Made by a program: the position numbers and the translations under genes | The notes under the pieces: generated by a model | Seen by the model: the letters and a program-made list of their open reading frames with translations, nothing else | Database searches by the model: none | Told to the model about the DNA's origin: nothing | Shown: positions 3,439-39,071 of the stretch, piece after piece | Layout: each line of letters starts with the position of its first letter | How positions within the stretch are numbered: position 1 is the first letter of the stretch | Source: a virus | IMG/VR virus record: IMGVR_UViG_3300002920_000044 | Coordinates: 19,344-83,343 of that record | Direction: 5' to 3' (one strand) | Length of the DNA stretch: 64,000 nt

Positions 3439-4071
3439 ATGAAAAGCCTAAAGCACTTTATACTGGAAAGCATCCACACTTACAACTATAAGATTAAAGT
3501 TGCAGGTGAAATCGACGAAAACAAGATAGAGTTACTAAAGCTTAACTTACAAAAATTCAGCCCAGTTAAGATTACTGGACCAAAGTCAACCCCTATCCAA
3601 AGGCATCCAGCCGGTTTCGTTGGGGTAGAAAATGAGCGCGTAAACATAATTGAAATGGAATGTCGTTATCCTGTTATTGAACCCTACGTAAAGCAAATTG
3701 CGCAGCTTCTTGGAATTGACCCAAATCGTGTCAAAATGGAAGGTACCAATTATTCAGATAGCATTGATACTGAAGCCGACGCATATGCAAAACAAGCTTC
3801 ACACAGTCCTCTTTTAAACCACGAAGAACTTGAAGAGCAGCCTGGAGCTAAGGAAGCAAGCAAACAGTATGCAAATAGCTACTTAGATTATGTTAAGGAA
3901 CAGACCAAAGAAGACAAGATGGAATATGTGTTTGCTGCTGACAAGATTAAAATTGATTTTGATCCTTTTAAACCAGAAACACTACACAAATCAATGGGAA
4001 CAAACAGTCCAATGACTAAAATCAAACTGCCTGAAAGGCCAAAAACGGGAAGAACAGGAACTAAATTATGA
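3439..4071 (+). CDS. Putative head-internal protein with capsid-targeting-like leader
   Basis: Begins MKSLKHFILE|S, similar to T4 IP leader MKTYQEFIAE; late motif at 3405. Confidence 0.5.
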   Translation: MKSLKHFILESIHTYNYKIKVAGEIDENKIELLKLNLQKFSPVKITGPKSTPIQRHPAGFVGVENERVNIIEMECRYPVIEPYVKQIAQLLGIDPNRVKMEGTNYSDSIDTEADAYAKQASHSPLLNHEELEEQPGAKEASKQYANSYLDYVKEQTKEDKMEYVFAADKIKIDFDPFKPETLHKSMGTNSPMTKIKLPERPKTGRTGTKL

Positions 4072-6647
4072 AAGATATTATTAGCAAGCTATCAGATATA
4101 GAAAACACCCCGGACAGACTCGGTAAGGCAACTAAGAAAATCCTTAAGGAAGAAAAGACACCAAAACTTAAAAGTATTTCTAAAAACTCATCTTTCAAAG
4201 ATGTATTTGAAAATATGAGTAATATGAAGCCTCTTCCTGTTGTAAATCAAGCCGGAACAGACAATCAAAAAACAGGTACTACTGGTTTTCTAGACATTGA
4301 CGACAATAGCCCATCGGCTAAAGCAATTCAAGCTGCGGTATCTGATTTGGCTCAACAGAACAAAGCGCAAATTGTATTACCAAAAGCACAAGCAGGTCCA
4401 CCTAACAATAACAGCGCGCAAAATACGCAAACAGTAAACCAAAACCAGCAAAACCAAAACCAACAAAACCAAAACCAGCAACCTCTGAAAGAAGTTGACA
4501 GTATAAAAAAAGTTGCCTCAGTTTATGTAAGCTTAACTGACGATGAATGCGAAGCTGAATATGAATTTGACGAGGATGGTGATATCGAACTAATTGGCGT
4601 CTATGATTCAAACGACAGGAATATAATGGACTTGTTAACTTTTAATGAGCTTGAGTCAGTTAGACAACAGGTTATGGATAGTCTAGAAAATAATGAAGGT
4701 AAAAAAAATCAGGTTGCTCAAGAAGGCAAGAAGGTTGACAGAATGGTATCACATATCAAAAAGTCAGAAGAAAAAGCCGGCAAGAACAAGAAGATTAATG
4801 AGGGCATCAAAGAAAAAATAAAGGGCGCAATTCGCAGAGAGCTTCAAAAAGACGTTCCTTTAGTGCAGACTAGAAAAGATTATGCATGGATGCAAGCTGG
4901 CGATGCCTACAGTAAAGGTGACAAGCGTAAAGGAGATCGATACATGGCTTGGCAAGAAAGAAGTCGCAAAAAATATGATGATACAACAACTAATCTAGAA
5001 GGATCCTATAGAACTAAGACTTCTGACTTTAATGAAAGCAAAAAGCCAGATTTCCTGGACTTGGGTAAAAATGATAATAAGAAAGAACCTATGATGAAAG
5101 CAATGAACAACAAAAAGAAACAGAAGGTAAAAGAATCCATGAAACACAAAATCAATGCAGCCAGACTAGAAGGTAAAACACACGGTTTACGTGGCCATGC
5201 TTATCACGGTAATACTTACGAACATATAGAAGAAAAGAGGGCATATCATGAAGGCTACAAGGAGGGACTTGATGAGTGCTATATGAACGAAAACATGATT
5301 GGCAAGCGCTTTATAAAAGAAGGTGACAACCAGGGCGCGGCAGAAGAACTAGAGTATCTTGCAGAACAAATCATGGAGCTAACTGAACAAGCAATGAGCG
5401 TTGTTCGTGGTACACCAGAAGAGAGAAGAGCAGAAAGATATTGGTATTCCCAAATTTTAGGCGCAATTTCTAGGGATAATAGTTACGGTGCTAGCAGTAT
5501 GGTTACTATTATGGATACTGTTGCAGTACTTAATGACATGGAGTCAGACACCAAGTTTGACGAAATGTTTGAAAGTTGGGACAAGCAACTTAAAAAACTA
5601 ATCAACGAGAACAAAAAACAGTCCAAGAAGCCCCTAAAAGAAGGCTTAAGTGTTTCTATAAACAGGGGCCACAGTATAGGACAAGATTCAGTAAGTATCA
5701 CTGCTACTGACCAAGATGCAGATGAGCTATTGGCACTTATTAAAAACTCAGGTCTAGGAATATTCAGTGACGAGGCAGTGCTAGAACCGTCAAGCGCAAT
5801 GTCTCTCCGACCACAAGAAGCTGGGGTAGGGCTAGAAATTGAAGTTGATGACAACCCAGTTTCAATGATTGGACTAATGCAAAAGCTATCTGGTATAGAA
5901 GATGCCCCGGGCAATGATTATGAAGAAGAATATTATGACTACGAATCTTTTGGTAAAGAAGAAGTTGAAGACGAAGATAGCGGAGAAAGAAAGGTTAAAG
6001 AAAAGTTTAACACTTGTGTGGAATGTGGCAAAATAATGGAAACAGGGCACTCATGTGGTTCTAAAGAAGTAACCGAAGAATCTATCTTCCTTGGTCTAAT
6101 TAACAAGCTCAACAAACTAGCTGAAGGCGAAGAGTTTGATTCTGAGGGAAACCGACTCGCATCAGAGGAATCTTTTGATAGCTTTAAAGAAAAGGTAATA
6201 GCAAGTAACGATCCTTTTGAAATTGTGCACGACGGTCTCAAAGGGTTATACGGTGACGAGGTTCTAGAACAACTTCAGCAATATGAAGATGAAGTAATTC
6301 GGGACAGTGAAGGTATGCTACACCCTGATGATGATCATGAAGAAATTGTTGACCGTATCATTGAAAAGATGAATGAACCAGAAGAAGATAACAGCGATGA
6401 AATGGAAATAGACAGTGATATGGACTTTGATAGCGAAGAACTTCATGAGTGGGCAAACAAGGCCGGTAAAAGAGGTACAGAACACGCCTTTGTTCAGGAT
6501 ACTGAATTCATGACCCAGACTATTGCTGGCGGTCTCAACAAGCCCAAATCAACTGGCCAGACAACTATTCCAGTGATTGCAAGTCAAACTGATAGGCAGG
6601 ATATCGGGCTTAGTGATATAGCAAAACTAGCAGGAATAAAGAAATAA
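4068..6647 (+). CDS. Large acidic low-complexity protein, putative prohead core/internal protein
   Basis: 859 aa, very E/D/K-rich, with many [ILVF]-x-E sites; overlaps the upstream stop; followed by a terminator. Confidence 0.5.
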   Translation: MKDIISKLSDIENTPDRLGKATKKILKEEKTPKLKSISKNSSFKDVFENMSNMKPLPVVNQAGTDNQKTGTTGFLDIDDNSPSAKAIQAAVSDLAQQNKAQIVLPKAQAGPPNNNSAQNTQTVNQNQQNQNQQNQNQQPLKEVDSIKKVASVYVSLTDDECEAEYEFDEDGDIELIGVYDSNDRNIMDLLTFNELESVRQQVMDSLENNEGKKNQVAQEGKKVDRMVSHIKKSEEKAGKNKKINEGIKEKIKGAIRRELQKDVPLVQTRKDYAWMQAGDAYSKGDKRKGDRYMAWQERSRKKYDDTTTNLEGSYRTKTSDFNESKKPDFLDLGKNDNKKEPMMKAMNNKKKQKVKESMKHKINAARLEGKTHGLRGHAYHGNTYEHIEEKRAYHEGYKEGLDECYMNENMIGKRFIKEGDNQGAAEELEYLAEQIMELTEQAMSVVRGTPEERRAERYWYSQILGAISRDNSYGASSMVTIMDTVAVLNDMESDTKFDEMFESWDKQLKKLINENKKQSKKPLKEGLSVSINRGHSIGQDSVSITATDQDADELLALIKNSGLGIFSDEAVLEPSSAMSLRPQEAGVGLEIEVDDNPVSMIGLMQKLSGIEDAPGNDYEEEYYDYESFGKEEVEDEDSGERKVKEKFNTCVECGKIMETGHSCGSKEVTEESIFLGLINKLNKLAEGEEFDSEGNRLASEESFDSFKEKVIASNDPFEIVHDGLKGLYGDEVLEQLQQYEDEVIRDSEGMLHPDDDHEEIVDRIIEKMNEPEEDNSDEMEIDSDMDFDSEELHEWANKAGKRGTEHAFVQDTEFMTQTIAGGLNKPKSTGQTTIPVIASQTDRQDIGLSDIAKLAGIKK
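4437..4481 (+). repeat. 3 x 15 bp in-frame tandem repeat (NQNQQ)3
   Basis: aaccaaaaccagcaa / aaccaaaaccaacaa / aaccaaaaccagcaa read directly from the sequence. Confidence 0.9.
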
Positions 6648-6671
6648 TCAATCCTTACTATCGATAATCAG

Positions 6672-6700
6672 AAACAGGGGCTTTGTGCCCCTGTTTTATT
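6672..6700 (+). terminator. Intrinsic terminator
   Basis: 10 bp stem aaacaggggc-tttgt-gcccctgttt followed by a T-rich tract, just after the 6647 stop. Confidence 0.8.
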
Positions 6701-6751
6701 ATATCTTTTGATAAATATTCTAGACAGCATGGTTATTGAAAGGAATTTACC

Positions 6752-9700: not shown

Positions 9701-9787
9701 TCAGTGGCATACGGTAACATAATAGGGGTTTTAATTGAGGCTATCAAAGAATTGAAAGCTGAAATTGACTTATTAAGGAAAAAATAA
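6752..9787 (+). CDS. Tail fibre with collagen-like region and C-terminal peptidase S74 intramolecular chaperone; probable CTG start
   Basis: N/T/G-rich beta-repeat region, about 61 Gly-X-Y triplets, then SDRRLKKDV...GVIAQE...[17 protein letters not shown] (S74). The frame extends upstream to an in-frame TGA at 6737; AAGGA precedes CTG-GCA-CAG-AAA ([14 protein letters not shown]). Confidence 0.8.
8444..8998 (+). repeat. Collagen-like Gly-X-Y repeat ([19 protein letters not shown] units)
   Basis: Uninterrupted G-X-Y periodicity over about 185 codons, with DNA-level duplicated blocks such as ggtccacaaggcccaattgg. Confidence 0.95.
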
Positions 9788-10082
9788 TGGAAATCCCGTG
9801 TGGGTATAATTAGAATGACTATATAAAAACTAAAGTTTAGACAACGACTTTAGCACAGGGGATGATATTACACCAAATAAGTTGCATCCCAGTAAAAGAA
9901 AAGTTGAGCAAATTCAAACAGCAAAAATGTGATAAATACATTGTATAGAGAATTCAAATGACCGGACAAATATCTAGAAAGATTTCTTTTTCGAACAAAA
10001 CAAAGGACAAAGCTGTAATGTCTAGGAATAGGTATAGACGTAGAAGCCTCAACGTTTTTAGAGGCCGAGGCAGATAAAACAC

Positions 10083-12590: not shown

Positions 12591-12619
12591 TAAATACATA
12601 TATTAAAGGGAATAGTAAA

Positions 12620-13378
12620 TTGTCACAGATTAACACCAACGGCATAGATGTAAATTATCCAGTACCGGGACAGAATAATAGCACTCAAGGGTTTAGGGAT
12701 AATTTTGTTCAGATCAAGAATAATTTGGATATCACTGCAATTGAACTTACTGACTTACAGAATAAGGTTGTTCTCAAATCAGCCCTAACAGACACTGTTC
12801 TTGATAACAATATGGCTAATGCTCAGATAAGCAACGTGTCTACAAGAGGTTTCAGGGGAACTACTTATAATCTAGGTAACGCATTAGCTGGTATAGTAAC
12901 TATAGACACTAACAAAGCAGATTTACATTATGGCACAGTTAATGGAAATGTCACTTTACAATTCAAGAACTGGGCTCCAACTGGAACTCACGGTAAAGTG
13001 TCTTTGCGTTTGAATGTCTCCAACGCCAATGCTGTAATAACATTACCAAGTCAAGTAGTATCATCTAACAATAACTTTGGAACTACACTTTTAGAGAATT
13101 TTAAACTAGTCGGTAACGTGGCTACAATTACGGTACCTAATGCTGGAGAAATATTAGAATACACCTTCACAACTGTAGATTGCGGTAACACAGTGACGGT
13201 TACCCCGGTCAACCGCCCCTATAAAGCTACACAAGTTGTATACAGAACACCCACACAAATTGGTTCTGTTGGTGATAAAGCAGGGACTATTGCAGTAGAC
13301 AATAATTATATTTATGTATGCACTGCCGATTATGACGGCGTTTCAAATATTTGGAAGAGAGCAGCCCTGGGTTGGTAA
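12620..13378 (+). CDS. Virion (tail/baseplate-associated) protein
   Basis: Late motif at 12590; beta-rich N/T/V composition; N-terminus QGFRDNF..IKNNL resembles phage fibre-attachment N-termini. Confidence 0.5.
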   Translation: MSQINTNGIDVNYPVPGQNNSTQGFRDNFVQIKNNLDITAIELTDLQNKVVLKSALTDTVLDNNMANAQISNVSTRGFRGTTYNLGNALAGIVTIDTNKADLHYGTVNGNVTLQFKNWAPTGTHGKVSLRLNVSNANAVITLPSQVVSSNNNFGTTLLENFKLVGNVATITVPNAGEILEYTFTTVDCGNTVTVTPVNRPYKATQVVYRTPTQIGSVGDKAGTIAVDNNYIYVCTADYDGVSNIWKRAALGW

Positions 13379-26732: not shown

Positions 26733-26926
26733 AAATACTAGGATTTTAATATCACCTTAGTTTTGGCGTTAAAAGTTTGTCAGTTATAAAAAGCCATTAA
26801 AGAAATTTACCTTGTCTTTATGAAAGCAAGTTACTATTAGACTAATGGGGAGTTTAATCTTATCATTGTTTTGGGTTATAAAACACTCGGTAATGATAAA
26901 TAATATTAATACTGCAGGATTCCCTC

Positions 26927-28270
26927 ATGAAGGTCAACGACATTTTCAATGAAACTACTACGTCAGGTTCAATTGCTTCTGTATCAGTACCTATGTCTAT
27001 ACAAAAGCGCAATAAAGTTGGCACAGGGGTATATGACAATACTAAATTTGGAAATTTATTGACTGGTAAAATTTCTAAGAAGAAATATGCCAACTCACTA
27101 AAAGAATACACCGGGGAAACCTTTAGAGTTCAGGTTACTACAAATAATGGTGAAGTATTTACATATTCGGTCAAAGCAGACAACCGAGAACAAGCTTTAA
27201 AGAAAGTTTGGCAACGCGCAAATAAGAGTGGTTATGGCGATTTTCAACTAAAGATTCTTGAAGAAAATATTATAGCCGAAGGCAAGGTAAAAGAATTATC
27301 TAAGGATATAAAGAATAGGAGCAACAATAACATGAAAAAAAAGTATATGAAGTCAAAAGAACAGATAAAATTCAATCTAAAAGCACCCAAGCAAAAGACA
27401 AATGAAAGCACCGAACAAGTTACCATCATGTATGATAGAGACTCTCTTTTTAATGATATTACTGGTGTAATGAAAGATACTGTTGCTAAATTCAAACATT
27501 ATGCATCAAGTAAAACCTTTACAGTCCCTTCCGCTCCAGACACTTCTAAGTTCCTGGCAGTAAAGGACAGCATGATTGACATACAAAGAAAAGTACCTGC
27601 AGGTCCTGTGTGTGAGTATGATATATTTTTGCGAATAGGTGCAGCCCTTCCATTAGAATTGCGCAGAAAAATTAAAGAATACTTCTTAGAGAGATTAGGA
27701 AACAATATTGGAATAGACTTACCCAGGGTATTTATAACTAATGACGGGTATGAAATGATGTTCAGCGAAAAGAATGGAACAAGTTGGGGAGGGTTTGGTT
27801 ACATTACTCTAGGCAAGGTCAAGAAATCAAACGAAACTAAGCCAGACGAAGAAGACAAGATTATTTCCCCAGGTAAAGGAAAAAAGCTTAAGACAGGATT
27901 ATATAAGCCCGGACAAAAAAAGAAGCTAAGTTACTTTAAACACCCGTTCAAGAGTTCGGGTGTTCATGTCAGTGATAGCAGGGGCAACAAGGTCTGTGAG
28001 TGCGAAAACGAAGACATAGCCAAAGAAGTCGCCAAAGCACTTAATAAGTATGTCAAGATTGATGAAAATATAAAAAGAGTAGGAGCCTACAACACCAAAG
28101 GTGGGATACTTAAGCTATTAAAAAGTGAACGCGACCCAATGCAATATTTTCTAGTTAACCCAAAAGGTGAGGTAGTTAGGCAGTTCAGGGGCACTGAAGA
28201 CGAAGTTAAAAAACAAGTTCAACAGGATATCAAATCAACTATTATACATGAAAATAAAAGGAAGAAATAA
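26927..28270 (+). CDS. Modular putative head-internal protein with capsid-targeting-like leader
   Basis: MKVNDIFNE|T; internal SLKE, ILEE, IIAE, KTNE, KIDE and IIHE sites; late motif at 26896. Confidence 0.5.
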   Translation: MKVNDIFNETTTSGSIASVSVPMSIQKRNKVGTGVYDNTKFGNLLTGKISKKKYANSLKEYTGETFRVQVTTNNGEVFTYSVKADNREQALKKVWQRANKSGYGDFQLKILEENIIAEGKVKELSKDIKNRSNNNMKKKYMKSKEQIKFNLKAPKQKTNESTEQVTIMYDRDSLFNDITGVMKDTVAKFKHYASSKTFTVPSAPDTSKFLAVKDSMIDIQRKVPAGPVCEYDIFLRIGAALPLELRRKIKEYFLERLGNNIGIDLPRVFITNDGYEMMFSEKNGTSWGGFGYITLGKVKKSNETKPDEEDKIISPGKGKKLKTGLYKPGQKKKLSYFKHPFKSSGVHVSDSRGNKVCECENEDIAKEVAKALNKYVKIDENIKRVGAYNTKGGILKLLKSERDPMQYFLVNPKGEVVRQFRGTEDEVKKQVQQDIKSTIIHENKRKK

Positions 28271-28271: not shown

Positions 28272-29345
28272 ATGAGTTCAATAATGAAGGGTCTTGTAAG
28301 AGAAGATCCTAGATACACATGGCCCGAAGATAATTTATATTCAGCAAGGCAAGCCCAGATATTCAAGGATTTGGGCGATGGTTATTATCTTGGTGATGAT
28401 AGTTATAAAGATGATGATGGCTTTACCAAGGAAGGGTATACTGTATATCACAAAGAAGGTGAAGACCAGTTTCGTCAAGTAAGCTATGTATCAATGAGCC
28501 CATATGACAATCCTCCAGGGCACATAGAAAGAGAGATTGAAAAAATTATTCAAAAGGATAAGAGCAGGCTAAACGAAAATAAGCGTATTATAGGCCATGA
28601 CGCCAAAGATCCTCAAATTGCAGTCAAGGGGGGCGCTGGCAGTTATACCCTATCTGCATTGAAAAAGAAGGCGTTAGGAGAGATAAAGGCACTTGTTGCT
28701 GATGTTCAAGCAGGCAAGTTTAAAGTTGCAGCATATAACGTCAACCAGCTCAAGAATACATTAGAAACCATCGCCGAAGCTGAAGATGAAATGGAAAAGA
28801 GTTATTTTAACGAAAACTCAAACTGTAAAAACTATAAACAACCTGGCATGAAGAAAAAGAACAGCAAAACAGTTTCTAACTATGTTCCAAAAAAGTCAGT
28901 TCAAGAAGTTGCTGATACTAGAACTACTGCCAACCAAACTGGAGGTTTCATCACTCCTGAATACGATAAAGCATATGCAACTCTTAAGGTCAAAGCACCA
29001 GAGTTATATAATTATATTCGCAACGAGGCGCCTGTTCCATTAGATCCGATAATGACATTACAGGCATTACAGCATATGGGAAGTGAAAGAGCAGTCATGA
29101 ACATGATTAAGCGCGAGCTTGCTAAAGACACTGAGAGAATGTATGATAAGAACCACCCTGCATTAGCTGAGAATATTAGGCGCTTAATGAGAAATATTAT
29201 TAGAGAAGCAAAAAAGAAAGGTATAGACGGCAAAGCATGTTGGGACAGGTATCGTTATGCCGGCACTGAAAAGGGTAAGGATAAGTGCATTCCCGTACGT
29301 AAAAAGACTAAAGAAAGCTCTGTCATAAAAGGAACTAGACGGTAA
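28272..29345 (+). CDS. Modular putative head-internal protein
   Basis: Probable start MSSIMKGLVRE|D at 28272; internal RLNE, YFNE, SVQE, ALAE and IIRE sites. Confidence 0.5.
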   Translation: MSSIMKGLVREDPRYTWPEDNLYSARQAQIFKDLGDGYYLGDDSYKDDDGFTKEGYTVYHKEGEDQFRQVSYVSMSPYDNPPGHIEREIEKIIQKDKSRLNENKRIIGHDAKDPQIAVKGGAGSYTLSALKKKALGEIKALVADVQAGKFKVAAYNVNQLKNTLETIAEAEDEMEKSYFNENSNCKNYKQPGMKKKNSKTVSNYVPKKSVQEVADTRTTANQTGGFITPEYDKAYATLKVKAPELYNYIRNEAPVPLDPIMTLQALQHMGSERAVMNMIKRELAKDTERMYDKNHPALAENIRRLMRNIIREAKKKGIDGKACWDRYRYAGTEKGKDKCIPVRKKTKESSVIKGTRR

Positions 29346-29348: not shown

Positions 29349-31205
29349 ATGAACCTAGGTGACTTTGACACCACAATAACAGAAGCCCCCATGAATCCCA
29401 ACGAGTTTGCCAAGGCAATTGAAGTTGGGCAAAGTGAGGGGGTTTTGGTTGGTTACGAGTTTGAGATAGGTATTCCTGCCGCTTATTCGGGTGGCTACAG
29501 AACAACAAAAAAACTAGCTAGTCAAATAAAAACTACACTCAATACTAAAGTAAAGATTTTTGATGTTACTCATCAACATTCTAAAAAGCTTGACATATGG
29601 TACATTGAACCAGATGAAAGTTTACAAACCCAAGATTCCAAGGACGTAGCTCTTGAAGTAGTTACTACTCCCATGCCTCCCCGAGAAGCAGTGCAAGTGT
29701 TGAAAAGTTTCTATCAGTTAGCTAAGAGTAACAATTTTTATACTGGCAAACAATATTCAACTGGATTACATATCAATGTAAGTATACCGAAAACTCTAGA
29801 TGTATTAAAGTTAGCTTTATTTTTGGGTGACGAATATTTGTTAAAGCTATTTGATAGGGAAGATATTAAATATGTTTGGTCTTTAAAAAAAGAGGTAGAA
29901 GATAACCTAATAAGTGGCGATGACTTTGTAGAGACCAATACCAAGAAAAAAGGAAAAAAGATATTGGCTACGCAGAATGCCATTGATTTGGAAAAACTTA
30001 AAGCCATAGCCAATAAAATATCAGATGATCACTATGCTAGTATTAATTTCAGCGGTAAGTATGTTAGCTTCAGACATGCAGGCGGTGATTATTTGAATGA
30101 CTACGACAATGTGTTGAATGTAGTAGGTAGATTTGTAAGAGCCATGATCATTGCAAGTGATCCTGAACTTTATAAAAATGAGTATATGAAAAAGTTGTCT
30201 TTGTTAGTGTCTAAGACACAAACTCCTAGAATTAAAGACATTGATAAGGCTAAAGAGTATTTGAAGCTATTGCAATTTATAAAAACTAACGGATATCCGG
30301 TAGTAGTAGCTAGTTCGTTGTTTGGTGTAAGCAAACAAGAAGTTTTTAATGGTATACCTGGTGAATTATTGCAAGCACTACATATATTATACAGGACTAA
30401 TAATTATAAACGTGACACTAGTGTTAAAGCCAAAAAGTTTGCTAAACAAAATATTTTGAACTATTATTCATCTATGTTATCAGCAGATTCTAAGTTAATG
30501 AAAATGTATAATGATGCCACGTTATTGGGTGCAAGCCTTACATATATGGTTTGTCCAGCTGACTCTTTAGCACAAACAATCCAAATATTAAATTCTATGG
30601 AGTTTCCTTTTAAAGGCACGTATTATTATAATAATGATTGGGCGCCGATTTACCATGTTGAATATTTTCCTTTGAACCATCCACTAGTTAGCGATAGTTA
30701 TAAAAAAATAACCCGAGACTATAAAGAATATATGGATAAGGCACGCCAGGGCGATTATGTTAATGAAGACAAACAAGCACCAATCTACTACTTTTCTTAC
30801 GGTATGCTAACTGATTCAGACTATTTGCCAGGTGCAGAATTGATGGGTGTAGCAGAATTGAGAAACTTCGAGTTTACTATGTATGCATATGCCAATGTCG
30901 AACCAAAAACGGGAAGCAAGGTATATGGTGCCTTGTGGAAACTAGATAAGAATTTGCTGTCATCACTAGACCAAATTGAAGATTATCCAGAATTATATGA
31001 CCGCAGAACTTACCCAGTTTATATGGATGGGAAAAAATACCCAGCAGAAGTTTATTTGATGACGCCAAGAACGCTTGAATATATCAGTAACACAGTGCCT
31101 ACACAACAGTATATCAACACTGTACTAAAAGGCTATAAAAATGCAGGAATTCCAATTAGCCAGTTGTATGATGCTCTTGATTTCAATACTACGAATAAAT
31201 ATTAA
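29349..31205 (+). CDS. COOH-NH2 amidoligase (Amidoligase_2-like) fused to C-terminal gamma-glutamylcyclotransferase (AIG2/GGCT)
   Basis: Ligase: VGYEFEI, IEPDESL, LEVVTTPM, TGLHINVS, YASIN, VSFRHAGG. GGCT: YFSYG..., VYGALW, LDQIEDYP.LYDR, AEVYLM. Confidence 0.78.
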   Translation: MNLGDFDTTITEAPMNPNEFAKAIEVGQSEGVLVGYEFEIGIPAAYSGGYRTTKKLASQIKTTLNTKVKIFDVTHQHSKKLDIWYIEPDESLQTQDSKDVALEVVTTPMPPREAVQVLKSFYQLAKSNNFYTGKQYSTGLHINVSIPKTLDVLKLALFLGDEYLLKLFDREDIKYVWSLKKEVEDNLISGDDFVETNTKKKGKKILATQNAIDLEKLKAIANKISDDHYASINFSGKYVSFRHAGGDYLNDYDNVLNVVGRFVRAMIIASDPELYKNEYMKKLSLLVSKTQTPRIKDIDKAKEYLKLLQFIKTNGYPVVVASSLFGVSKQEVFNGIPGELLQALHILYRTNNYKRDTSVKAKKFAKQNILNYYSSMLSADSKLMKMYNDATLLGASLTYMVCPADSLAQTIQILNSMEFPFKGTYYYNNDWAPIYHVEYFPLNHPLVSDSYKKITRDYKEYMDKARQGDYVNEDKQAPIYYFSYGMLTDSDYLPGAELMGVAELRNFEFTMYAYANVEPKTGSKVYGALWKLDKNLLSSLDQIEDYPELYDRRTYPVYMDGKKYPAEVYLMTPRTLEYISNTVPTQQYINTVLKGYKNAGIPISQLYDALDFNTTNKY

Positions 31206-31219
31206 TGTAGGATTATATT

Positions 31220-31663
31220 ATGCTAACAGAAACTCTTAAAGTATTATTAGCTACAAGTTATAGCTTTGCTATCAAGGCTCAAAATTTTCATTGGAATTGT
31301 GAGGGCCCAGACTTTCCACAGTATCATAAATTTTTTGGTGATATTTACGAAGAAGTGTTCAACAATTCAATTGACCAGTTAGCCGAGTATGTTAGAATAC
31401 TTGGTAGCTATACTCCGGGAAGCTTTACTAGAATGATAGAGTTGTCCAAAATTGAGGACCAACTTCTTATTCCCAGAGCCGAACTAATGATTGCCGAACT
31501 TTATCAGGATAACCAGATTCTTCTTGAATTGTATAAAGAAGCGTTTCATGTCGCCGAACAAGCAGACGAGCAGGCTATTTGTGATTTTTTTGCTAGCAGA
31601 ATTAACGCACACGGTAAGTGGGGTTGGCAACTTAGAAGTACCTTAAGCAAGTCAAGAGCGTAA
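31220..31663 (+). CDS. dps: Dps/ferritin-like DNA protection protein
   Basis: KAQNFHWNCEGPDFPQYHKFFGDIYEE...DQLAEYVRILG...HGKWGWQLRS. Confidence 0.88.
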   Translation: MLTETLKVLLATSYSFAIKAQNFHWNCEGPDFPQYHKFFGDIYEEVFNNSIDQLAEYVRILGSYTPGSFTRMIELSKIEDQLLIPRAELMIAELYQDNQILLELYKEAFHVAEQADEQAICDFFASRINAHGKWGWQLRSTLSKSRA

Positions 31664-32467
31664 TTATTTTTCTTTTCCGTCTGCTAATCCTTCGTCTGGG
31701 TTAATACAAGTTTGCATTAACATCTCAACTTTAACTAATGCTTTTTTGCGAATTTGCTCACTATCTAAAATATCCCCAAGATAGATATACTGTGGCTTGT
31801 TACTATAGAACTTGGCTACTTCGCTATCATTTGATATACTAACTACGGCATCTGGAGAAAGCTTCATGTCCTTTATACATTCAATATCCCTCATAGTGTC
31901 TGGGTAGTTCTTCAATACCCACCCGTCAAGTGTGATTGTTTCACTTCTAACTAACTCAGCAACTTGATTGTGTTTGCTAGCATCAATCTTTTCTTTCTTG
32001 GCAAGTGTAATTGGGTCAATAAGTTTAATTTCATAGGTCTTTGCTAGATATTCGGCAATACCATGTTTATCGTCTAATACAATAATTTTAGGGGGAACTA
32101 CCCTCTCAGCACTGTCTGATTCGAACCCTATTTCTTCTAAGAAGACAGGCAACTCACTATAACAGTTTGGGCCGCGCACAACTTGAATGTGCAATTTTTC
32201 TTGAAGTTCTTGTTCATCGCCAGTTGTCTTGCCAGGTATTATCAATACATTGACACCTTCTATATCACCAATTTGTTTGTAAATAATTGATACGTCAAGC
32301 CATGCAGCAACCTCTACATCCAAAACTCTAATCTTATATGTAAAATCTTGCGGGTTTATAGCTTCAAGAACTCTTTGTAATCCTTTTGCAGCCAGTTTTC
32401 CTGTAACAAATATTACCTTACTGTTTTTTTCAGGTCTATATTCGTTAATAAGTTCTTCAACTATCAT
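31664..32467 (-). CDS. DUF6513-like domain fused to a degenerate adenylate-kinase-like domain
   Basis: IFVTGKLA...VLEAINPQDFTY.IRVL.V.VAAWL...LIIPGKTTGD...L...VVRGP resembles the N-domain of methanopterin-type DHPS-like proteins. GWVLKNYPDT...PDAVVSI resembles ADK GWILDGFPRT but lacks a P-loop. Confidence 0.55.
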   Translation of the reverse strand: MIVEELINEYRPEKNSKVIFVTGKLAAKGLQRVLEAINPQDFTYKIRVLDVEVAAWLDVSIIYKQIGDIEGVNVLIIPGKTTGDEQELQEKLHIQVVRGPNCYSELPVFLEEIGFESDSAERVVPPKIIVLDDKHGIAEYLAKTYEIKLIDPITLAKKEKIDASKHNQVAELVRSETITLDGWVLKNYPDTMRDIECIKDMKLSPDAVVSISNDSEVAKFYSNKPQYIYLGDILDSEQIRKKALVKVEMLMQTCINPDEGLADGKEK

Positions 32468-32532
32468 AATGATTATTCCTTATTATTATTTAGTTTCAGA
32501 GATAAATACTTAGTATATTTAAAAGGACGATT

Positions 32533-35001
32533 ATGCGAGCAAAAGAGTTTTTATTGTCTACTTCGCCATTAAACTTATTTGAAGTAAAAATGAGTCCTGC
32601 TAATCTTAAAAAACTGACCTCTACTATTGATGCTAAGGTTGGTATTGAATTTGAAATGGCTTTCCCCCAGATAGAAAAATATGATGATGAATACTATGAA
32701 CCTGATTACGATTATGACGCAAGTTTATATTCAATTGAGGATGTCGTAGATTTTTTTAGTCAGGGGGGCGTTAACTCTAGGGATGATATTAATGCACTGA
32801 AGCGCAATCTAATGCAAGAAGTAGATGAAAAACGTCAGGAGCTAATATTAGAACTTTGGGATGATGAAGCTGATGAGTTCTTCCCAGACTGGGTAAGAGA
32901 TAATGTTCCAGAAGAAGTTGTTAGCAAGTTTGTTGGTAAAGAACCAGACTTATTTGGGGAAACAGTTCCTACTAAAGAAGATTGGGATAAATTCATTGAA
33001 CATGAGACGAAGGAACAAGGAGATTACTGGGAAAAGGCTAAAGAAGAATTCATTGAATTACACCAAGATGATCAAGATTATCTAGAAGATAGAATTCTGT
33101 CAAGTCTAGGATATGAGTATATGACAGATATTCATAGTAATTTTGGTATCGAGTGGCCATTCTTAACCACTGTGGCATCTTATTTTGAAGGAATCCTAGA
33201 AGATTTGGCAACATCCTTAGAAGAAGCAGTAGAACGTAAGGTAAGATATTCGTCTGGATATCATGAGTTAACAAAGGATGATAAAAGCTATGTAATTGAA
33301 ACTGACAGTAGTATTAATGGTGAGGGCGGTATAGGCTTAGAAATTGTAAGCCCTCCTATGTCAATTGACGAAATGCTTGAAGATATCAAAAAAATAAAAA
33401 AATGGGCAGATGAACATAATGCTGTTACTAATAAGTCTACTGGGCTTCACATCAATGTAAGTGTTCCTGGATATAAAAAGTCTCAATTAGATTTAACCAA
33501 GCTTACATTACTAGTTGGTGACAAGTATATTCTTAAAAAGTTTGACAGAATTGCCAATGATTATGCTGCATCGGTATTTGATAAGATATTGACAAACACC
33601 ACTGAAGTTGACCAGGAAATATTCTTTAGAAATCTCAAGGGCAAAATGAATGGAATTAGTGCTAAGCTATTCTCAGGTGACGGGTTCGGCAAATATTCAA
33701 GCATTAACCCACGACAAGGATGGGTAGAATTTAGAAGCCCTGGCGGTGACTGGCTTAACAAAAGCAAACAAGAAATTGAAGACACTATTAGACGTTTTGT
33801 TATAGCATTGGATGCTGCTGTTGATCCATCTAAGTACCAAAAAGAATACCTAAAGAAACTAACCAAAGTATTTTTGCCCTCGTCTGGGTCAATTGAAGAA
33901 TTATTTATCCAATATGCAGCTGGCGCAATAACCAAAACTGAGTTGAAGAAAGAATTGCAAAAAGTTAGAGAAAAAACTAGCAATAAAAAATTCCTCGAAA
34001 AAGGAATTATATTTGTTGAGTATAATCAAATAAAAAAAGGTGACTGGATTATTGAACAACCTATTCCTGGTAGTTTCACATATTCTCGTGCATATCTCAG
34101 GAAAACAGCCGAAATTAATTCACCAGAAAAAGCACAAAATGCAGTTCTTGAATCTATGCCAAATTCGTTTGATGCTAAGAGAATTGAAGAAATCACTGTG
34201 ACTGAGTATGATGGGTTTCATATATTTGTTATTCATGAAAGAGGTCTTCCTTTCATATCGAACAAAAAATATCATAGAGCTACCCCTGCACAAGCTCAAG
34301 AATTTTTTTATAGAGAACACCCGGAGTTTAGAAGTTTAGACCTCGTGGCCAGTCGTGATAGAGACCTTAGGCGTCTTGAATCTAACAAAGAGTTGCTTAT
34401 CAAAGGACAAACTGTTTACGTCGTAGTTGATTATTCCGATTCTATTCCATATGCTAATGTTATTAGTGGAGTCTCACCAGAACACGCTGAGTTACGTGCA
34501 AGGTTCTATCTTTTTATTTATGATAAAGACGCTAGTGTGATACCTATTCAAGAATTTAACAAAGATTCTCCTGACAATGATGAAACTAAGTTAAAAATGT
34601 ATAGTATCAGGTATATTAATCACCCTTATTATGTGTATAATGTTTTCGCCACAAGCAAAAAACAAGCCGCCTTAATACACAAACTACTAAATGAGAACAA
34701 AAACGATGTTATGTTCATAATAGAGTTCCCCCAACAAATCATATATAAAATGAAACGTTTTATTGAAGAACAAGTAAAAAACCTCATGGAAGTTGGAGTA
34801 TTCTTTAATCCTGAGAACGGTAATTTGAGTAGGTATGACCCTAACAACCTGATTAGGTTTAGGTCTACTTATCAAGATGGCCCTACCAAACGACAAATAA
34901 ATGTTTTTGCTAACAATATTGAGCAAGCTGAAGTTTTGGCAAGAATAAAATATGATTTAGAGCCCACAGATAAATTAGATATTGAGAGAGTTGATCATTG
35001 A
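32533..35001 (+). CDS. COOH-NH2 amidoligase (Amidoligase_2-like) paralogue with acidic insertion and long C-terminal extension
   Basis: VGIEFEM, IETDSSI, GLEIVSPPM, TNKSTGLHINVS, KYSSINP and VEFRSPGG. Confidence 0.78.
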   Translation: MRAKEFLLSTSPLNLFEVKMSPANLKKLTSTIDAKVGIEFEMAFPQIEKYDDEYYEPDYDYDASLYSIEDVVDFFSQGGVNSRDDINALKRNLMQEVDEKRQELILELWDDEADEFFPDWVRDNVPEEVVSKFVGKEPDLFGETVPTKEDWDKFIEHETKEQGDYWEKAKEEFIELHQDDQDYLEDRILSSLGYEYMTDIHSNFGIEWPFLTTVASYFEGILEDLATSLEEAVERKVRYSSGYHELTKDDKSYVIETDSSINGEGGIGLEIVSPPMSIDEMLEDIKKIKKWADEHNAVTNKSTGLHINVSVPGYKKSQLDLTKLTLLVGDKYILKKFDRIANDYAASVFDKILTNTTEVDQEIFFRNLKGKMNGISAKLFSGDGFGKYSSINPRQGWVEFRSPGGDWLNKSKQEIEDTIRRFVIALDAAVDPSKYQKEYLKKLTKVFLPSSGSIEELFIQYAAGAITKTELKKELQKVREKTSNKKFLEKGIIFVEYNQIKKGDWIIEQPIPGSFTYSRAYLRKTAEINSPEKAQNAVLESMPNSFDAKRIEEITVTEYDGFHIFVIHERGLPFISNKKYHRATPAQAQEFFYREHPEFRSLDLVASRDRDLRRLESNKELLIKGQTVYVVVDYSDSIPYANVISGVSPEHAELRARFYLFIYDKDASVIPIQEFNKDSPDNDETKLKMYSIRYINHPYYVYNVFATSKKQAALIHKLLNENKNDVMFIIEFPQQIIYKMKRFIEEQVKNLMEVGVFFNPENGNLSRYDPNNLIRFRSTYQDGPTKRQINVFANNIEQAEVLARIKYDLEPTDKLDIERVDH

Positions 35002-35065
35002 CAAAACTTTCTATTAAGAGTATAGAAATCTTTCTTGTTAATAAATATACAAAAAGGCAATGAAC

Positions 35066-35368
35066 ATGAAGATTTACGAAATTTTGAATGAAGAACACAG
35101 CACTGATCCAGACTTTGACAAGTTACCAAACATTGTTCTTCAGGTCCGCAAGAGCTTGGACACAGGGGGCAATCGTCCTCTTTCGTTTAGAGACGGAACT
35201 ACCAAAACTGTTCCAGTGAATGCAATGGTCGCCTTCATGAATAAATACGAAACTCTAAAGCCCATAGACCGTGAAAAGATGCAGAAACAAGCTATTGAAA
35301 GCTTTGGAAGCTTCATGGATGTGGTCAAAAGTTTTGTTGGTCAACGCGCACCAAAGAGCATTTATTAA
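35066..35368 (+). CDS. Small putative head-internal protein
   Basis: MKIYEILNE|E leader; late motif at 35041. Confidence 0.55.
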   Translation: MKIYEILNEEHSTDPDFDKLPNIVLQVRKSLDTGGNRPLSFRDGTTKTVPVNAMVAFMNKYETLKPIDREKMQKQAIESFGSFMDVVKSFVGQRAPKSIY

Positions 35369-35462
35369 TTACCCGAAACAATTGATAATTTTTACTATAG
35401 CAGTTATATTAGAAACTCTGACTGATAGTAGTCAGCATTTTAATGAAAGAGGAAATTAATAT

Positions 35463-35951
35463 ATGAAGAACTTTGTATTTGCAGCCGTAGCTGCTACTGT
35501 GGCCTTTGCTGCAACACCTGCAATGGCCGACAACTCAAACTTTACCGGCCCTCGTGTGGGTCTAACTGCTGGTTACGATGATGTAACTGGTTCTTTTGAT
35601 GCCAACGATGTAGTATATGGTGCTGATGTTGGTGTTGATCTTCCGGTTGGTGAAAACGTTGTTGTTGGACTTGAAGGCACTGTAACTAATGTCTTTGAAG
35701 ACACCCGTACTTTTGGTGTTGGTGCTCGTGCTGGCTATACCGTAACTGACAACCTTATGCCTTTCGTTCGTGTTGGTTGGGCAAACTATAGTGATGTTCT
35801 CAATGGTGACCTCAACGGTGTAACTGTTGGTGGTGGTCTTGAGTATGCACTTAACAGCGCAATCTATACCAAGGTTGAATATCGTTACAGCGATTTTGAA
35901 AAGGGCGTTGGTAATCACGGCGCACTTATCGGGGTAGGAATTAGGTTCTGA
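35463..35951 (+). CDS. Outer-membrane 8-stranded beta-barrel (porin/opacity-like) with signal peptide
   Basis: Signal peptide MKNFVFAAVAATVAFAATPAMA; alternating G/hydrophobic strands; C-terminal VGIRF (terminal Phe, BAM signal). Confidence 0.85.
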   Translation: MKNFVFAAVAATVAFAATPAMADNSNFTGPRVGLTAGYDDVTGSFDANDVVYGADVGVDLPVGENVVVGLEGTVTNVFEDTRTFGVGARAGYTVTDNLMPFVRVGWANYSDVLNGDLNGVTVGGGLEYALNSAIYTKVEYRYSDFEKGVGNHGALIGVGIRF

Positions 35952-35980
35952 CTTTTAGTTAGAATTAATTCAAAGATACG

Positions 35981-36010
35981 GGGGAAACTGGCAACAGTTT
36001 CCCCTATTTT
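35981..36010 (+). terminator. Intrinsic terminator after the OMP gene
   Basis: Perfect 10 bp stem ggggaaactg-GCAA-cagtttcccc followed by tattttt. Confidence 0.85.
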
Positions 36011-36038
36011 TATAAATAGATGTATAAGGATAAAAAAT

Positions 36039-36575
36039 ATGTCTATTTTTGCTATATTGTCATTGAGTATATTAATTTTATGGACTGTATACGGTATATT
36101 TGGCCCGAGAGTAAAAAAGAGTTCTAGGGCCAATCATAATGCTATGGGTATAAATTTTCCCATCCCGTATAAAGGAACTAGTTATGGACCTGGAGTTTGG
36201 AAACAAGAAGAGGGCGAATGGAGATTTTCCAAAGTATTGGGTGTGATAGTGGGATACATTTATTGGTTTTTAACCATGTCATATCCTATTGTGGTTATCG
36301 CCCCTATTATTGCTATAGCTGTTGATAGTTTCTCGAGAAAGTTTATTGTTTATGATATAGCGGGTCACGGTGCTGAAATTCTTTATGCAGAAAAAATGGG
36401 ATTTTCTAACTATATGGAAGAGGAAGCAGAAAGAATGAGTAAGGACCGTAACTTTAAAGCAAAGTGGTCAAATGATTCTACTAGAAAAGAAATTATCATA
36501 GAACAGCTTAAGAAATATCGCTGGCTATCAAGAATTGTTCTTTCATTATCTTATAAAAAAATTCCAACAGATTAA
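36039..36575 (+). CDS. Hypothetical membrane protein
   Basis: Two hydrophobic regions (N-terminal, and VLGVIVGYIYWFL...IIAIAV). Confidence 0.55.
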   Translation: MSIFAILSLSILILWTVYGIFGPRVKKSSRANHNAMGINFPIPYKGTSYGPGVWKQEEGEWRFSKVLGVIVGYIYWFLTMSYPIVVIAPIIAIAVDSFSRKFIVYDIAGHGAEILYAEKMGFSNYMEEEAERMSKDRNFKAKWSNDSTRKEIIIEQLKKYRWLSRIVLSLSYKKIPTD

Positions 36576-36583
36576 ATACTATC

Positions 36584-37111
36584 ATGAGAGCAATAGAGTT
36601 TTTAACCGAAAAGAAAAAGCGTAAGCGTAAAAAATCCAAGAAAGCATACGGAGGGTATTTCTACCCTGGGTTTGGATTCTATGGCACTGGTGAAGGAAAC
36701 GCAGATGCAGGCGGCGATGGCGGCGGAGGGGGAGAAAGCATCTATGAAACACAAGAAAACAACCATAAACATGAAGTCGAAAAGTTTGCAAATTGGATGA
36801 TTGAAAAGCTTAAGATCAAGAACCCAGTTAAGATCGAACTAAGCATGGATACTGAAGAGGCACAGACCAATCATCATACTGGCGGTCATATTTTAGGGAC
36901 AGATAAAATATGGGTATATGCCAAAAATAGAAATTTAGTAGATATCCTAAGAACCGTTGCTCATGAACTGGCTCACATTAAACAAGGTGAGCTTGATATG
37001 ATTGAACCAGGCGACAGCTATCCAGGAAGCCCCATTGAGTCACAAGCAGACGTTATAGCTGGTAAGTGGATTAAGATATACGGTAAAGAGAACAATCACA
37101 TATTTGAATAA
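36584..37111 (+). CDS. Zincin-like metallopeptidase (HExxH) with capsid-targeting-like leader
   Basis: RTVAHELAHIKQ plus downstream ESQAD third-ligand motif; leader MRAIEFLTE|K. Confidence 0.65.
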   Translation: MRAIEFLTEKKKRKRKKSKKAYGGYFYPGFGFYGTGEGNADAGGDGGGGGESIYETQENNHKHEVEKFANWMIEKLKIKNPVKIELSMDTEEAQTNHHTGGHILGTDKIWVYAKNRNLVDILRTVAHELAHIKQGELDMIEPGDSYPGSPIESQADVIAGKWIKIYGKENNHIFE

Positions 37112-37224
37112 TATGCTTGTCATACCAATTATTTTTTGCTGTTACTAATCTCATATATTGTTCATGTTCGCTAGGTTCGTCTCTCCCCGAAATTTACAAC
37201 AATGCAATATCAATAATAGCCTTT

Positions 37225-38202
37225 TCAGGTTTTAGGTTCGATCTTTGGTTCTTCACTAGCGTATGATAGAGGGAACTTTTCAGCCAATAATTGGGCCTCT
37301 CGATGAACATCATATCCGCCAGGTTTTATGTCTTGGCTAGCTTTGTTGATGATTTCACTCTTTTCTTTCATGGCTTCAATTATTTTTTTCATTAATCCTG
37401 GGTAGTATTTGGCAAACATGCTATCCTTGCTGTTTTTATGGGCTTGGCTAGCACTTTTTATTTGGTTGGTGGGAGCATGGATTTGGTATTTACTGTAATC
37501 TTCGTTAGGATTTTTGATATTGAAGACGTTTAATATTAGTCCCTGTGGCATATATTTATTAATCCAGGTTTCACCAGAACTTGAACCAGTACAATAAGAA
37601 GCTTTAATGCCAAATCCGTTATTGAAAAAATAACATGCACCATAGTTTAATGGAATAGAAACAAATATTTCACCGTCATTGATAAGAACAATATCTTTCT
37701 TGTTCTTTTTCATCTGTTTTAGCTTTGCTTCGTCTTTAAACTGAGATATTGCTTGTCTATAGGTAGTGTTCAATACCCTAGATAAATGCTGTAAATCTGT
37801 AAAGCGATTAATGTCAGAATACTTAGCATCAAGCACGCGTGACCTTCCCAATACGTGAAATAAAGCAAGAGTGTCAGCTTCACCTACAATATCCTCATAG
37901 TCTACTGCTCCAATCACATATTTTCTGACTAACCACATATCATACTTGTTAATTTTTGATATATCGCCATACTCGGTGTTGCTTAAGGCCGAATCAATTA
38001 CATCGCTTAAAAATTTCGTAGCATGTTCATCGGTAGGGCGCTTACCTAATTTATGAAGCATATTGACGGGTATAGTGTCATCGTTGTGTACGGCTATTCT
38101 GATAGCACGCATTATATTTGGGTCTTTAATTTTAGACGCTACATTAGCTTCAACAAGTTTGGTTTCAACTGTTTTAGTTTTTGTGATATCAGAAATTTTC
38201 AT
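37225..38202 (-). CDS. PcfJ-like domain protein with capsid-targeting-like leader
   Basis: IPLNYGAC...SYCT...QGLI...KYQIH pattern; leader MKISDITKTKTVETKLVE|A. Confidence 0.45.
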   Translation of the reverse strand: MKISDITKTKTVETKLVEANVASKIKDPNIMRAIRIAVHNDDTIPVNMLHKLGKRPTDEHATKFLSDVIDSALSNTEYGDISKINKYDMWLVRKYVIGAVDYEDIVGEADTLALFHVLGRSRVLDAKYSDINRFTDLQHLSRVLNTTYRQAISQFKDEAKLKQMKKNKKDIVLINDGEIFVSIPLNYGACYFFNNGFGIKASYCTGSSSGETWINKYMPQGLILNVFNIKNPNEDYSKYQIHAPTNQIKSASQAHKNSKDSMFAKYYPGLMKKIIEAMKEKSEIINKASQDIKPGGYDVHREAQLLAEKFPLSYASEEPKIEPKT

Positions 38203-39071
38203 ATAGATAACCAGGCTCTTTCTATGAAGTATACGACAGTAGCTATTGTAGCCAAGTCGTTGTTTTTTATCTTATCTATAGTTCCACTTTTGTCTTTAGA
38301 AAAGAAAGTGTTTAAATTTGTGCTATTGAATGAACCATTGTTAGTAATTCTTGAATCAGGGTCGTAATAATTAATAGTAGATATCAATGCGTTCAGTAGA
38401 ACTCTTTTAGCTATATCTTTATTTGTTTTTGGGTCGTCTAAGAAGTCCAGGATATCCTGGCGGCGTCGTAGTTTTCTATTTATCTTACGATTGTTAACAT
38501 TACCTTTGACCATATTGATTATCATGCTATCCAATTCAGCTTTAGCTTTTACTGCATGTTTCATCAAAAATGGGTTCAATCTTTTTAAGAGAGTGTCTCC
38601 TATGTCGCCAGTAGGAACAGTTCTAGTTTTAGGTTTTTTATAAAAGATACGATAAAATTCTTCGGCTTTACCAAGATAGGGTTTAATATATTTTAAAAGG
38701 TTTTTGATTCCACGGTCACCAATTGGAAAAGAATTCATGTCGTTTGTTACCATTACTCCGGCCCACCATTCTTCGTTTCCTACATAATTCGGATGTATAA
38801 CTACTGAACCATTTGTTCCTACGATTGCTATAGCTATTCCTTCTCTAAATTTAGTAGCAGTTAATCCTTTAATATCACCCCAAACTACTTTATCAACTTT
38901 TGTGATATCTCCGGCTTCATGTGAGAATATTTTATTTTGGTGAAGTTCTATGATAGCTTTACGCAATGCAGGATTGATATTGCTCCCAAAGTGACTAATA
39001 ATGTCACTGGATTCTAAAAGAACAGTGAAATATTTAGATAATAATGTACTTTCGTTAAGTTTTTTTCTCAT
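38199..39071 (-). CDS. Hypothetical protein, putative head-internal
   Basis: MRKKLNE|S...VLLE|S; tandem - strand late motifs at 39077 and 39087. Confidence 0.5.
   Translation of the reverse strand: MRKKLNESTLLSKYFTVLLESSDIISHFGSNINPALRKAIIELHQNKIFSHEAGDITKVDKVVWGDIKGLTATKFREGIAIAIVGTNGSVVIHPNYVGNEEWWAGVMVTNDMNSFPIGDRGIKNLLKYIKPYLGKAEEFYRIFYKKPKTRTVPTGDIGDTLLKRLNPFLMKHAVKAKAELDSMIINMVKGNVNNRKINRKLRRRQDILDFLDDPKTNKDIAKRVLLNALISTINYYDPDSRITNNGSFNSTNLNTFFSKDKSGTIDKIKNNDLATIATVVYFIERAWLSI

Follow-up and report, generated by a model that had tools for sequence, protein, structure and literature searches.

The internal proteins of T-even phages are diverse except for a conserved targeting sequence (PMC3012670). 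In T4, the propeptides are 10–19 residues long and the first 10 residues of IPIII are enough for packaging; within the leader, residues 4 and 7 are important in targeting, 8 and 10 in processing, and a protein with Asp at position 10 is still targeted but no longer cleaved (PMC9026906). In the phiKZ-like giants (phiKZ, 201phi2-1 and SPN3US), many head-internal proteins are cut after Glu by a gp21-related protease, and a role in directing proteins into the prohead is attributed to their propeptides (PMC5694885). The polyvalent proteins have also been predicted to be delivered from the phage head (Iyer et al. 2017; PMC5512222). Here, we describe a 64,000-nucleotide stretch of viral DNA (hereafter, the window), corresponding to bases 19,344–83,343 of a 100,163-bp IMG/VR contig (IMGVR_UViG_3300002920_000044), in which unrelated proteins share a short N-terminal leader. 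We estimate at roughly 70% the probability that these shared N-termini are capsid targeting sequences of the T4 type, and the tagged proteins are probably carried in the virus particle.

A preliminary description of the window had listed nine N-termini of this kind, all of which translate exactly as written, in position and in strand. It had likened them to the targeting sequences of T4 IPII/IPIII and IPI, and this likeness held against the T4 leaders taken from NC_000866, namely MKTYQEFIAE/A for IPII and IPIII and MKTFKEFTSTTTPVSTITE/A for IPI (here and below, a slash marks the end of the leader): length, acidic-hydrophobic-hydrophobic core and terminal [LIF]-x-E all agree. The 9-mers MKIYEILNE, MRAIEFLTE, MKVNDIFNE and MIVEELINE correspond to the T4 short form minus one residue, MKSLKHFILE is a 10-mer, and MRAKEFLLSTSPLNLFE and MKISDITKTKTVETKLVE resemble the long IPI form. 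Homologue families bore out the shared leader for eight of the nine proteins, but not for MRKKLNE, the start of the protein encoded from 39071. The eight leaders comprise 9–18 residues and all end in [L/I/F/V]-x-E. The proteins that bear them are unrelated, including Amidoligase_2, GGACT, DUF6513/adenylate kinase (ADK), zincin and PcfJ-like proteins, as well as orphans.

A total of 124 open reading frames (ORFs) was called on the contig. A loose form of the leader (Met, then [ILVF]-x-E within 20 residues) fitted 36 of these (29%), which is chance level and uninformative. The tight form, [KRI]-x-x-[DE]-[ILFV]-[ILFV]-x-E from residue 2, with a leader core of M-[KR]-x-x-[DE]-[FIL]-[FIL]-x-E, was found at 4 of the 124 N-termini (3.2%) versus 5 of 30,172 internal positions (0.017%), and was thus about 195-fold enriched at N-termini over protein interiors. 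In a pattern-free test (pairwise BLOSUM62 comparison of residues 2–10), 14 similar pairs were observed versus 4.8 ± 2.2 (maximum 13) in decoys, which consisted of 500 sets of 9-mers taken after internal Met; two clusters were formed, one by the proteins encoded from 26927, 32467 and 35066, the other by those from 32533 and 36584. Within this single contig, the signal is real but modest, and its strength comes from the relatives.

Relatives of the amidoligase were collected from IMG/VR, where a single-protein scan gave 0 and an alignment-based scan gave 414; 80 loci with 10-kb flanks were taken from the latter for family comparison. In a pool of 2,565 proteins, drawn from these loci, from the complete relative G001 and from the contig, the leader was all-or-none by family, and its frequency was 0% in DNA polymerase, clamp, ClpA, DnaJ, Dps-like and a dozen other conserved families. 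The replication and modification enzymes had been described as lacking the leader, and this proved correct: none was found in the replication, chaperone and DNA-modification families. Overall, the leader is a real feature, conserved within families, modular on unrelated folds and absent from housekeeping families.

Among the tagged proteins, the 822-amino-acid amidoligase encoded at 32533..35001 (+ strand; Pfam Amidoligase_2) carries a 17-residue IPI-like leader, MRAKEFLLSTSPLNLFE/VKMSP, at 32533–32583, and has 662 metagenome homologues, several of them on contigs of 330–363 kb. Leader counts were made on 109 of the best 120 homologues, those having the V-K-M-S-P block. The start M[KR]xx[DEQNHK][FILVM] was present in 107 of these 109, and [LIMFV]-x-E stood immediately ahead of V-K-M-S-P in all 109, with 11–26 residues between the two ends. 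A targeting peptide plus a cleavage site predicts just such a pattern, in which both ends are fixed and the spacer is free to vary. A similar arrangement was found in the 267-amino-acid protein encoded at 31664..32467 (− strand; Pfam DUF6513), whose leader, MIVEELINE/YRP, lies at 32441–32467 and whose homologues carry the adenylate-kinase domain PF00406. This protein and 30 homologues exhibit an N-terminal extension of 6–25 residues ending in [LIV]-x-E before [YFWA]-R-P, with many homologues beginning with MR[LIY].[ED][IL][LF]E; starts seen in the family are MRLKEILE..., MRIAELFE... and MKICELLE.... The extension is missing from the cellular DUF6513 homologue P0151, which begins directly at the domain.

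Leader-bearing proteins are associated with virions in a cultured relative, Atu_ph07, for which Attai et al. (2018) identified 131 proteins in virion preparations (PMC6102473, Table S5). We mapped the Table S5 entries to Atu_ph07 ORFs (MF403008.1) by molecular weight and gene order. Leader-positive ORFs, defined by one regular expression that covers the leaders of both phages, were in the virion list in 19 of 24 cases, versus 112 of the 821 others (odds ratio 24, p = 2.7e-12). When paralogues were collapsed and the first 12 residues masked, 8 of 13 leader families were represented, versus 101 of 749 (p = 9.6e-5). About 25 Atu_ph07 virion proteins begin with M[RK][WLY]x[QDE]LxE, including gp43, gp47, gp53-64, gp381, gp394, gp408, gp482, gp487, gp548, gp561 and gp672; longer, less canonical leader-like starts were found in gp199, gp205 and gp206, which are encoded next to the portal gene and the protease gene. 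Attai et al. listed these proteins as hypothetical virion proteins and do not discuss any leader or targeting sequence common to them, and the word "prohead" is absent from their main text (PMC6102473); in the literature, we found no paper linking capsid targeting sequences to this phage group.

Two direct homologues of tagged proteins were also present in these preparations. The homologue of the window amidoligase, gp196, begins with MRWQDISSKKLTE/LKMNSS and was identified with 14 unique peptides (30% coverage); its identity was checked by mass and accession arithmetic against the portal and protease entries. The second, gp113 (11 peptides, 61.7% coverage), is the homologue of the 210-amino-acid protein encoded at 3439..4071 (+ strand), which carries the 10-residue leader MKSLKHFILE/S at 3439–3468. 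An in-frame upstream start (84393–85148, − strand) gives gp113 the N-terminus MKTLQDYLTE/S, which aligns from residue 1 with the 3439 protein, and because this start yields a leader, the annotated gp113 start is probably 29 codons too short. In G001, the orthologue begins with MKSLKHFIAE/S. The 3439 protein is a conserved virion protein of the lineage, and its family adjoins the tail and neck genes. The next gene (4068–6647) encodes an 859-amino-acid Asn/Gln-rich protein that begins with MKDIISKLSDIE, its G001 counterpart beginning with MKDLLKKMSQLE; gp112 of Atu_ph07, at the matching position, is present in virions, and homology between it and the 859-amino-acid protein was not found.

The remaining leaders were compared within their own families. 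The 26927 gene (26927..28270, + strand), the first of an operon with those at 28272 and 29349, encodes a 447-amino-acid protein of no family with the leader MKVNDIFNE/T at 26927–26953. Its homologues keep only the first ~30–60 residues (MKI.[DE][IF]..E-STTSGSIATV...), the remainder having diverged past BLAST recognition. The second gene of the operon (28272..29345, + strand; 357 amino acids) has no canonical leader; its N-terminus, MSSIMKGLVRE/D (28272–28304), is shared by homologues as MSSI.KG[LI].[DR]E ahead of differing downstream modules, and, speculatively, may represent a second leader class ending in [IV]-x-E. The third (29349..31205, + strand) encodes a 618-amino-acid amidoligase-GGCT fusion (Pfam Amidoligase_2, GGACT and AIG2_2), with the GGACT/AIG2 domain at its C-terminus according to Pfam. 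Its atypical leader, MNLGDFDTTITE/APMNP (29349–29384), aligns with the homologue starts MKLFEFDPPLDE/APMNP and MRAKEFLLENTVDE/AKMNP, with the same terminal Glu.

The protein encoded at 35066..35368 (+ strand) belongs to no family and, with 100 amino acids, is the size of a T4 internal protein. Its leader is MKIYEILNE/E (35066–35092), and because homologue N-termini read MKI.E[IL]L.E (8 of 9 distinct ones), the true start is at 35066 and not at the upstream ATG at 35060. The 175-amino-acid zincin-like protein (36584..37111, + strand) carries MRAIEFLTE/K at 36584–36610 and an HExxH motif, HELAH. Homologues begin with MRANEFIAE/RKRKRK, MRATEFITE or MKAREYISE, the family keeping MRA.EFI.E followed by a Lys/Arg run. 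In the window, the region right after the putative cut site (36611–36700) comprises KKKRKRKKSKK and then a Gly/Tyr/Phe-rich, low-complexity linker, both kept in homologues, and this composition suggests what could be a DNA-binding tail for a protein stored within the packaged DNA. Some zincin homologues end the leader in Asp (MRYNELLLD at L056:13837-14406 and MRYNEIILD at L064:8862-9989); these may be packaged uncleaved, because in T4 an Asp at this position blocks processing yet allows targeting. Finally, the 325-amino-acid protein encoded at 37225..38202 (− strand), in an operon behind the 39071 gene, has the 18-residue leader MKISDITKTKTVETKLVE/AN at 38149–38202. A homologue at locus L042 begins with MIIKDIINE/AN, and its Glu9 aligns with Glu18 of the window protein.

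The enzyme names given in the preliminary description were only partly confirmed. Pfam supported the two amidoligases, GGCT and DUF6513, and the ADK label was supported via homologues. The zincin label corresponds to the HExxH motif and weak matches to a metalloprotease PHROG (E = 0.006) and to Peptidase_M78 (E = 0.05), while PcfJ is only a protein-atlas lead for the 38202 protein (90 of 100 named matches were PcfJ clusters). For the proteins encoded from 3439, 26927, 35066, 38202 and 39071, searches of Pfam and PHROGs returned no matches or only sub-threshold ones.

The leader genes or their operons had also been said to follow late motifs, and we found TAAATA at most 70 nucleotides upstream of seven of the nine genes, the other two lying inside their operons. 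The motif stands at 3406 for the 3439 gene, at 26897 for the 26927 gene, at 32492 and 32521 for the 32467 gene, at 32503 for the 32533 gene, at 35042 for the 35066 gene, at 36573 for the 36584 gene (11 nucleotides before the ATG), and at 39082 and 39092 for the 39071 gene. Over both strands, TAAATA occurs 126 times, with 39 occurrences within 70 nucleotides upstream of a same-strand start, a zone that covers 4.3% of positions. It also precedes 28 other genes, including tail/neck, clamp and DnaJ genes, and is not specific to the cargo. The T4 late promoter consensus is TATAAATA; by analogy, TAAATA would be a late promoter element, and its placement fits late expression. Moreover, the spacing between the motif, counted from its first T, and the ATG shows a sharp peak at 11 nucleotides (6 of 31 upstream motifs here and 15 of ~90 in G001). 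Examples are found at 36573–36586, 39082–39071 (− strand) and 1159–1172 of the window, and these genes are also without a Shine-Dalgarno sequence. Should TAAATA serve as a late −10 element of the T4 type, the late mRNAs of these genes would have little or no leader.

The source of the contig is an uncultured jumbo T4-related myovirus. Because the 100,163 bp were rated 29% complete by CheckV, the whole genome is expected to be ~345 kb. The contig encodes tail and neck proteins of the T4 type (sheath, tube, sheath stabiliser and head-tail adaptor), as well as a clamp loader, a DNA polymerase and ClpA/DnaJ-like proteins. The tail sheath is 44–47% identical to those of Atu_ph07 (44%), Phosso and PA5oct, and 38–41% identical to those of Rak2-like phages; core proteins of the lineage are only 25–45% identical to those of T4 or Atu_ph07. 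When 10 kb of the module was compared with 50,697 phage records by megablast, no match was obtained. Outside the window, on its upstream side, the sheath gene is separated from the tube genes by a pair of homing/HNH endonuclease genes encoding 322 and 539 amino acids (L001:15542-18272, genome 15542-18272). Both contig ends (G000:C1:1-100 and 100064-100163), outside the window, consist of collagen-like Gly-X-Y repeats (GPTGPQGP...); assembly probably broke within repeated tail-fibre genes.

Most of the tagged genes form a cargo module between the ClpA/DnaJ genes and the DNA polymerase gene, which comprises the two amidoligases (one GGCT-fused), the DUF6513/adenylate-kinase-like protein, the zincin, the PcfJ-like protein and small proteins without a family. 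The module is syntenic with G001, in the order ClpA, ..., 26927 homologue, 28272 homologue, GGCT, Dps-like, amidoligases, ..., DNA polymerase. It also contains, in conserved position, a gene for a 147-amino-acid Dps-like DNA-binding protein (31220..31663, + strand; phrog_3636), which has no leader and for this reason is not claimed as cargo. Its "MLTE" start was considered as a leader and rejected, since ML..LK.LLA belongs to the conserved fold in 25 homologues, with 0% leaders.

In relatives, some of these domains are fused in polyvalent proteins of 1200–2082 amino acids, which contain a nucleotidyltransferase, a zincin, an amidoligase and then either ParB_N or a deaminase and GNAT. Such proteins were found at L100:8603-14851, L092:8612-14632 and about 15 other loci; all begin with MNI.ELDSYNLADAVKFH and hold homologues of the separate zincin and amidoligase genes of the window. 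Because relatives fuse the same zincin and amidoligase domains, the module amounts to a polyvalent protein divided into genes with tags of their own. It is not itself a member of the polyvalent proteins, since its several domains do not lie in one polypeptide.

If the leaders act as capsid targeting sequences, the leader, whether short or of the longer IPI-like type with a spacer, would bind the scaffolding core of the prohead, so that the tagged protein is enclosed. A gp21-family prohead protease would then cut after the Glu of [L/I/F/V]-x-E, leaving the mature protein free inside the DNA-filled head, from which it would probably be ejected into the host alongside the DNA. We infer all of these steps, from binding to the scaffold and cutting by the protease to ejection and any effect on the host. 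A protease of this family is present in relatives: Peptidase_S77 (gp21-type) was found in Atu_ph07 and RsoM2USA, as well as in four of five near-complete IMG/VR genomes that carry the amidoligase (340–361 kb, two of them with terminal repeats). In G001, the protease gene lies between the portal gene and that of a capsid protein with several N-terminal [LI]-x-E sites, and small leader-bearing genes are located near it.

All the checks that were run agreed with capsid targeting and none contradicted it, and we consider it supported, with virion support by proxy. Several points nevertheless weigh against it. The virion evidence comes from the cultured relative Atu_ph07 and not from the source phage, and the Atu_ph07 leader is an 8-mer, MRWEQLTE, that is not identical to the 9-mer found here. 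Paralogues account for at least 12 of the Atu_ph07 positives, but the enrichment persists when counted by family, and the molecular-weight mapping mis-assigned about a dozen non-leader entries. Atu_ph07 virions were purified by polyethylene glycol (PEG) and centrifugation only and the list of 131 proteins holds some obvious non-structural enzymes, so that some contamination is likely. The leader patterns were set up post hoc, on data already seen. The case for cleavage after the leader Glu is one of sequence conservation: in 109 of 109 amidoligase homologues, [LIMFV]-x-E directly abuts the conserved N-terminus of the predicted mature protein. Genes for the major capsid protein, the portal and the prohead protease were not found on the contig (Pfam Peptidase_S77 and Gp23 searches); because the contig is a 29% fragment, their absence from the phage is not implied, and relatives with the same cargo genes do have the protease. 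Finally, the 39071 gene (38199..39071, − strand) encodes a 290-amino-acid protein of no family, for which the proposed leader, MRKKLNE (39051–39071), was not supported, its first seven residues not being conserved in 18 relatives. These relatives instead conserve [LIV]-x-E-[AS]-S at about residue 20, and a longer propeptide ending in ...TVLLE/SSD (39012–39071) is possible. A protein-atlas search with this protein returned chance-level matches only.

Among the alternatives, the one that survives best is that the leader does target the prohead, but that the tagged proteins function in assembly or as part of the core, as T4 gp67/gp68 do, or remain inside the head rather than being injected as enzymes that act on the host. 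The 3439 family, a conserved and abundant virion protein adjoining tail and neck genes, would fit this explanation, as would the location of the leader-bearing gp199, gp205 and gp206 between the portal and protease genes of Atu_ph07, and the ejection step of our own scheme is itself inferred. Most tagged proteins, however, have enzyme folds (amidoligase, GGCT, zincin or kinase-like) without an obvious structural use, the same domains are found in polyvalent proteins that are predicted to be injected (PMC5512222), and the cargo set differs among relatives, as accessory effectors do. We regard this explanation as unlikely.

Less probable still is that the leader is a tag for another machine, such as the phage ClpA-like unfoldase with DnaJ, or a membrane or secretion route, and that virion presence is indirect. 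We know of no Clp tag of this form, and the T4 mechanism is the simpler explanation, since the leaders closely match both the targeting sequence defined by experiment in T4 and the rule for gp21 cleavage. ClpA-like and DnaJ genes do flank the cargo module, both here and in G001, and a review has raised the speculative idea that ClpA/ClpX of jumbo phages may act in the translocation of unfolded proteins while virions are assembled (PMC7824862); such an unfoldase could coexist with capsid targeting instead of replacing it. The least probable explanation, that there is no targeting role and the N-termini reflect a translation-initiation or codon constraint of an AT-rich genome (Lys, Asn, Ile, Glu and Phe codons after the ATG) or a generic amphipathic N-terminal helix, could draw on the 29% of ORFs that match the loose motif, the modest pattern-free excess in this contig and some enrichment of Lys, Leu and Ile at N-termini, but it does not account for the ~195-fold excess of the position-specific pattern over internal sites, the all-or-none distribution among families, which leaves highly expressed structural and replication families at 0%, the amino-acid-level conservation in families diverged to 35% identity, with a variable spacer between two fixed ends, the absence of the extension from the cellular homologue, or the prediction of virion presence in Atu_ph07.

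Capsid targeting would be an instance of the known T4 principle, and what is new is the lineage, the enzyme cargo, the polyvalent equivalence and the proteomic cross-check. A broader proposal, which we put forward tentatively and as somewhat more doubtful than not, is that a large clade of uncultured ~340–360 kb jumbo phages, and more distantly Atu_ph07, loads a changeable enzyme kit into the head by an N-terminal "address and cut" grammar, the kit including an amidoligase/GGCT pair that could both attach gamma-glutamyl-type tags to host targets and take them off. Were this proposal correct, sequence alone would reveal which proteins hundreds of uncultured phages inject, and polyvalent proteins would be interchangeable with sets of separately tagged genes as ways to build the same cargo. 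Provided that the leaders act as they do in T4, the proteins injected before any gene expression would be predictable from the first 10–20 codons. Injected proteins are the first weapons against host defences, and this group is widespread, giant and almost uncultured. The ~25 "hypothetical virion proteins" of Atu_ph07 would be assigned a function, and the computationally predicted polyvalent proteins would be tied to a concrete loading mechanism. The amidoligase, GGCT, zincin and PcfJ-like enzymes would be pointed to as early-acting effectors worth assaying. Moreover, the leader could be used to load foreign proteins into jumbo-phage heads, as is the case for the T4 targeting sequence.

Compared with known systems, the locus is related to Atu_ph07 by membership of the same supergroup and by the homologues gp196 and gp113 in its virions, but differs from it in the leader consensus, which in Atu_ph07 comprises eight residues and has Trp at position 3. 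The propeptides of phiKZ-like phages mostly exceed 100 residues and have the cleavage motif [A/S/G]-x-E, whereas the leaders described here resemble those of T4 in being short and have a bulky hydrophobic residue at the −2 position. With the polyvalent proteins (PMC5512222), the module shares an amidoligase and a putative zincin-like metallopeptidase, a candidate counterpart of their zincin hub domain, to which the relatives add nucleotidyltransferase, ParB_N, deaminase and GNAT domains, and DNA-coupled delivery is predicted for both. Here, however, the domains are encoded by separate genes, each with its own leader, except for the amidoligase-GGCT fusion, and release would depend on the head protease instead of an embedded zincin. 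With respect to T4 IPI, IPII and IPIII (and Alt), most leaders are one residue short of the T4 10-mer, the tagged genes of this uncultured ~345-kb jumbo phage are grouped in a syntenic module distant from the head genes, and the cargo consists mostly of large enzymes (up to 822 amino acids) rather than small basic proteins, although T4 Alt is also an enzyme. In other respects, the two systems are alike: leaders of 9–20 residues start from the Met with Lys/Arg at position 2, a short form occurs together with a long IPI-like form that has a Ser/Thr/Pro spacer, unrelated proteins are tagged, a T4-type late motif lies upstream, and a gp21-family protease is encoded by relatives in the lineage.

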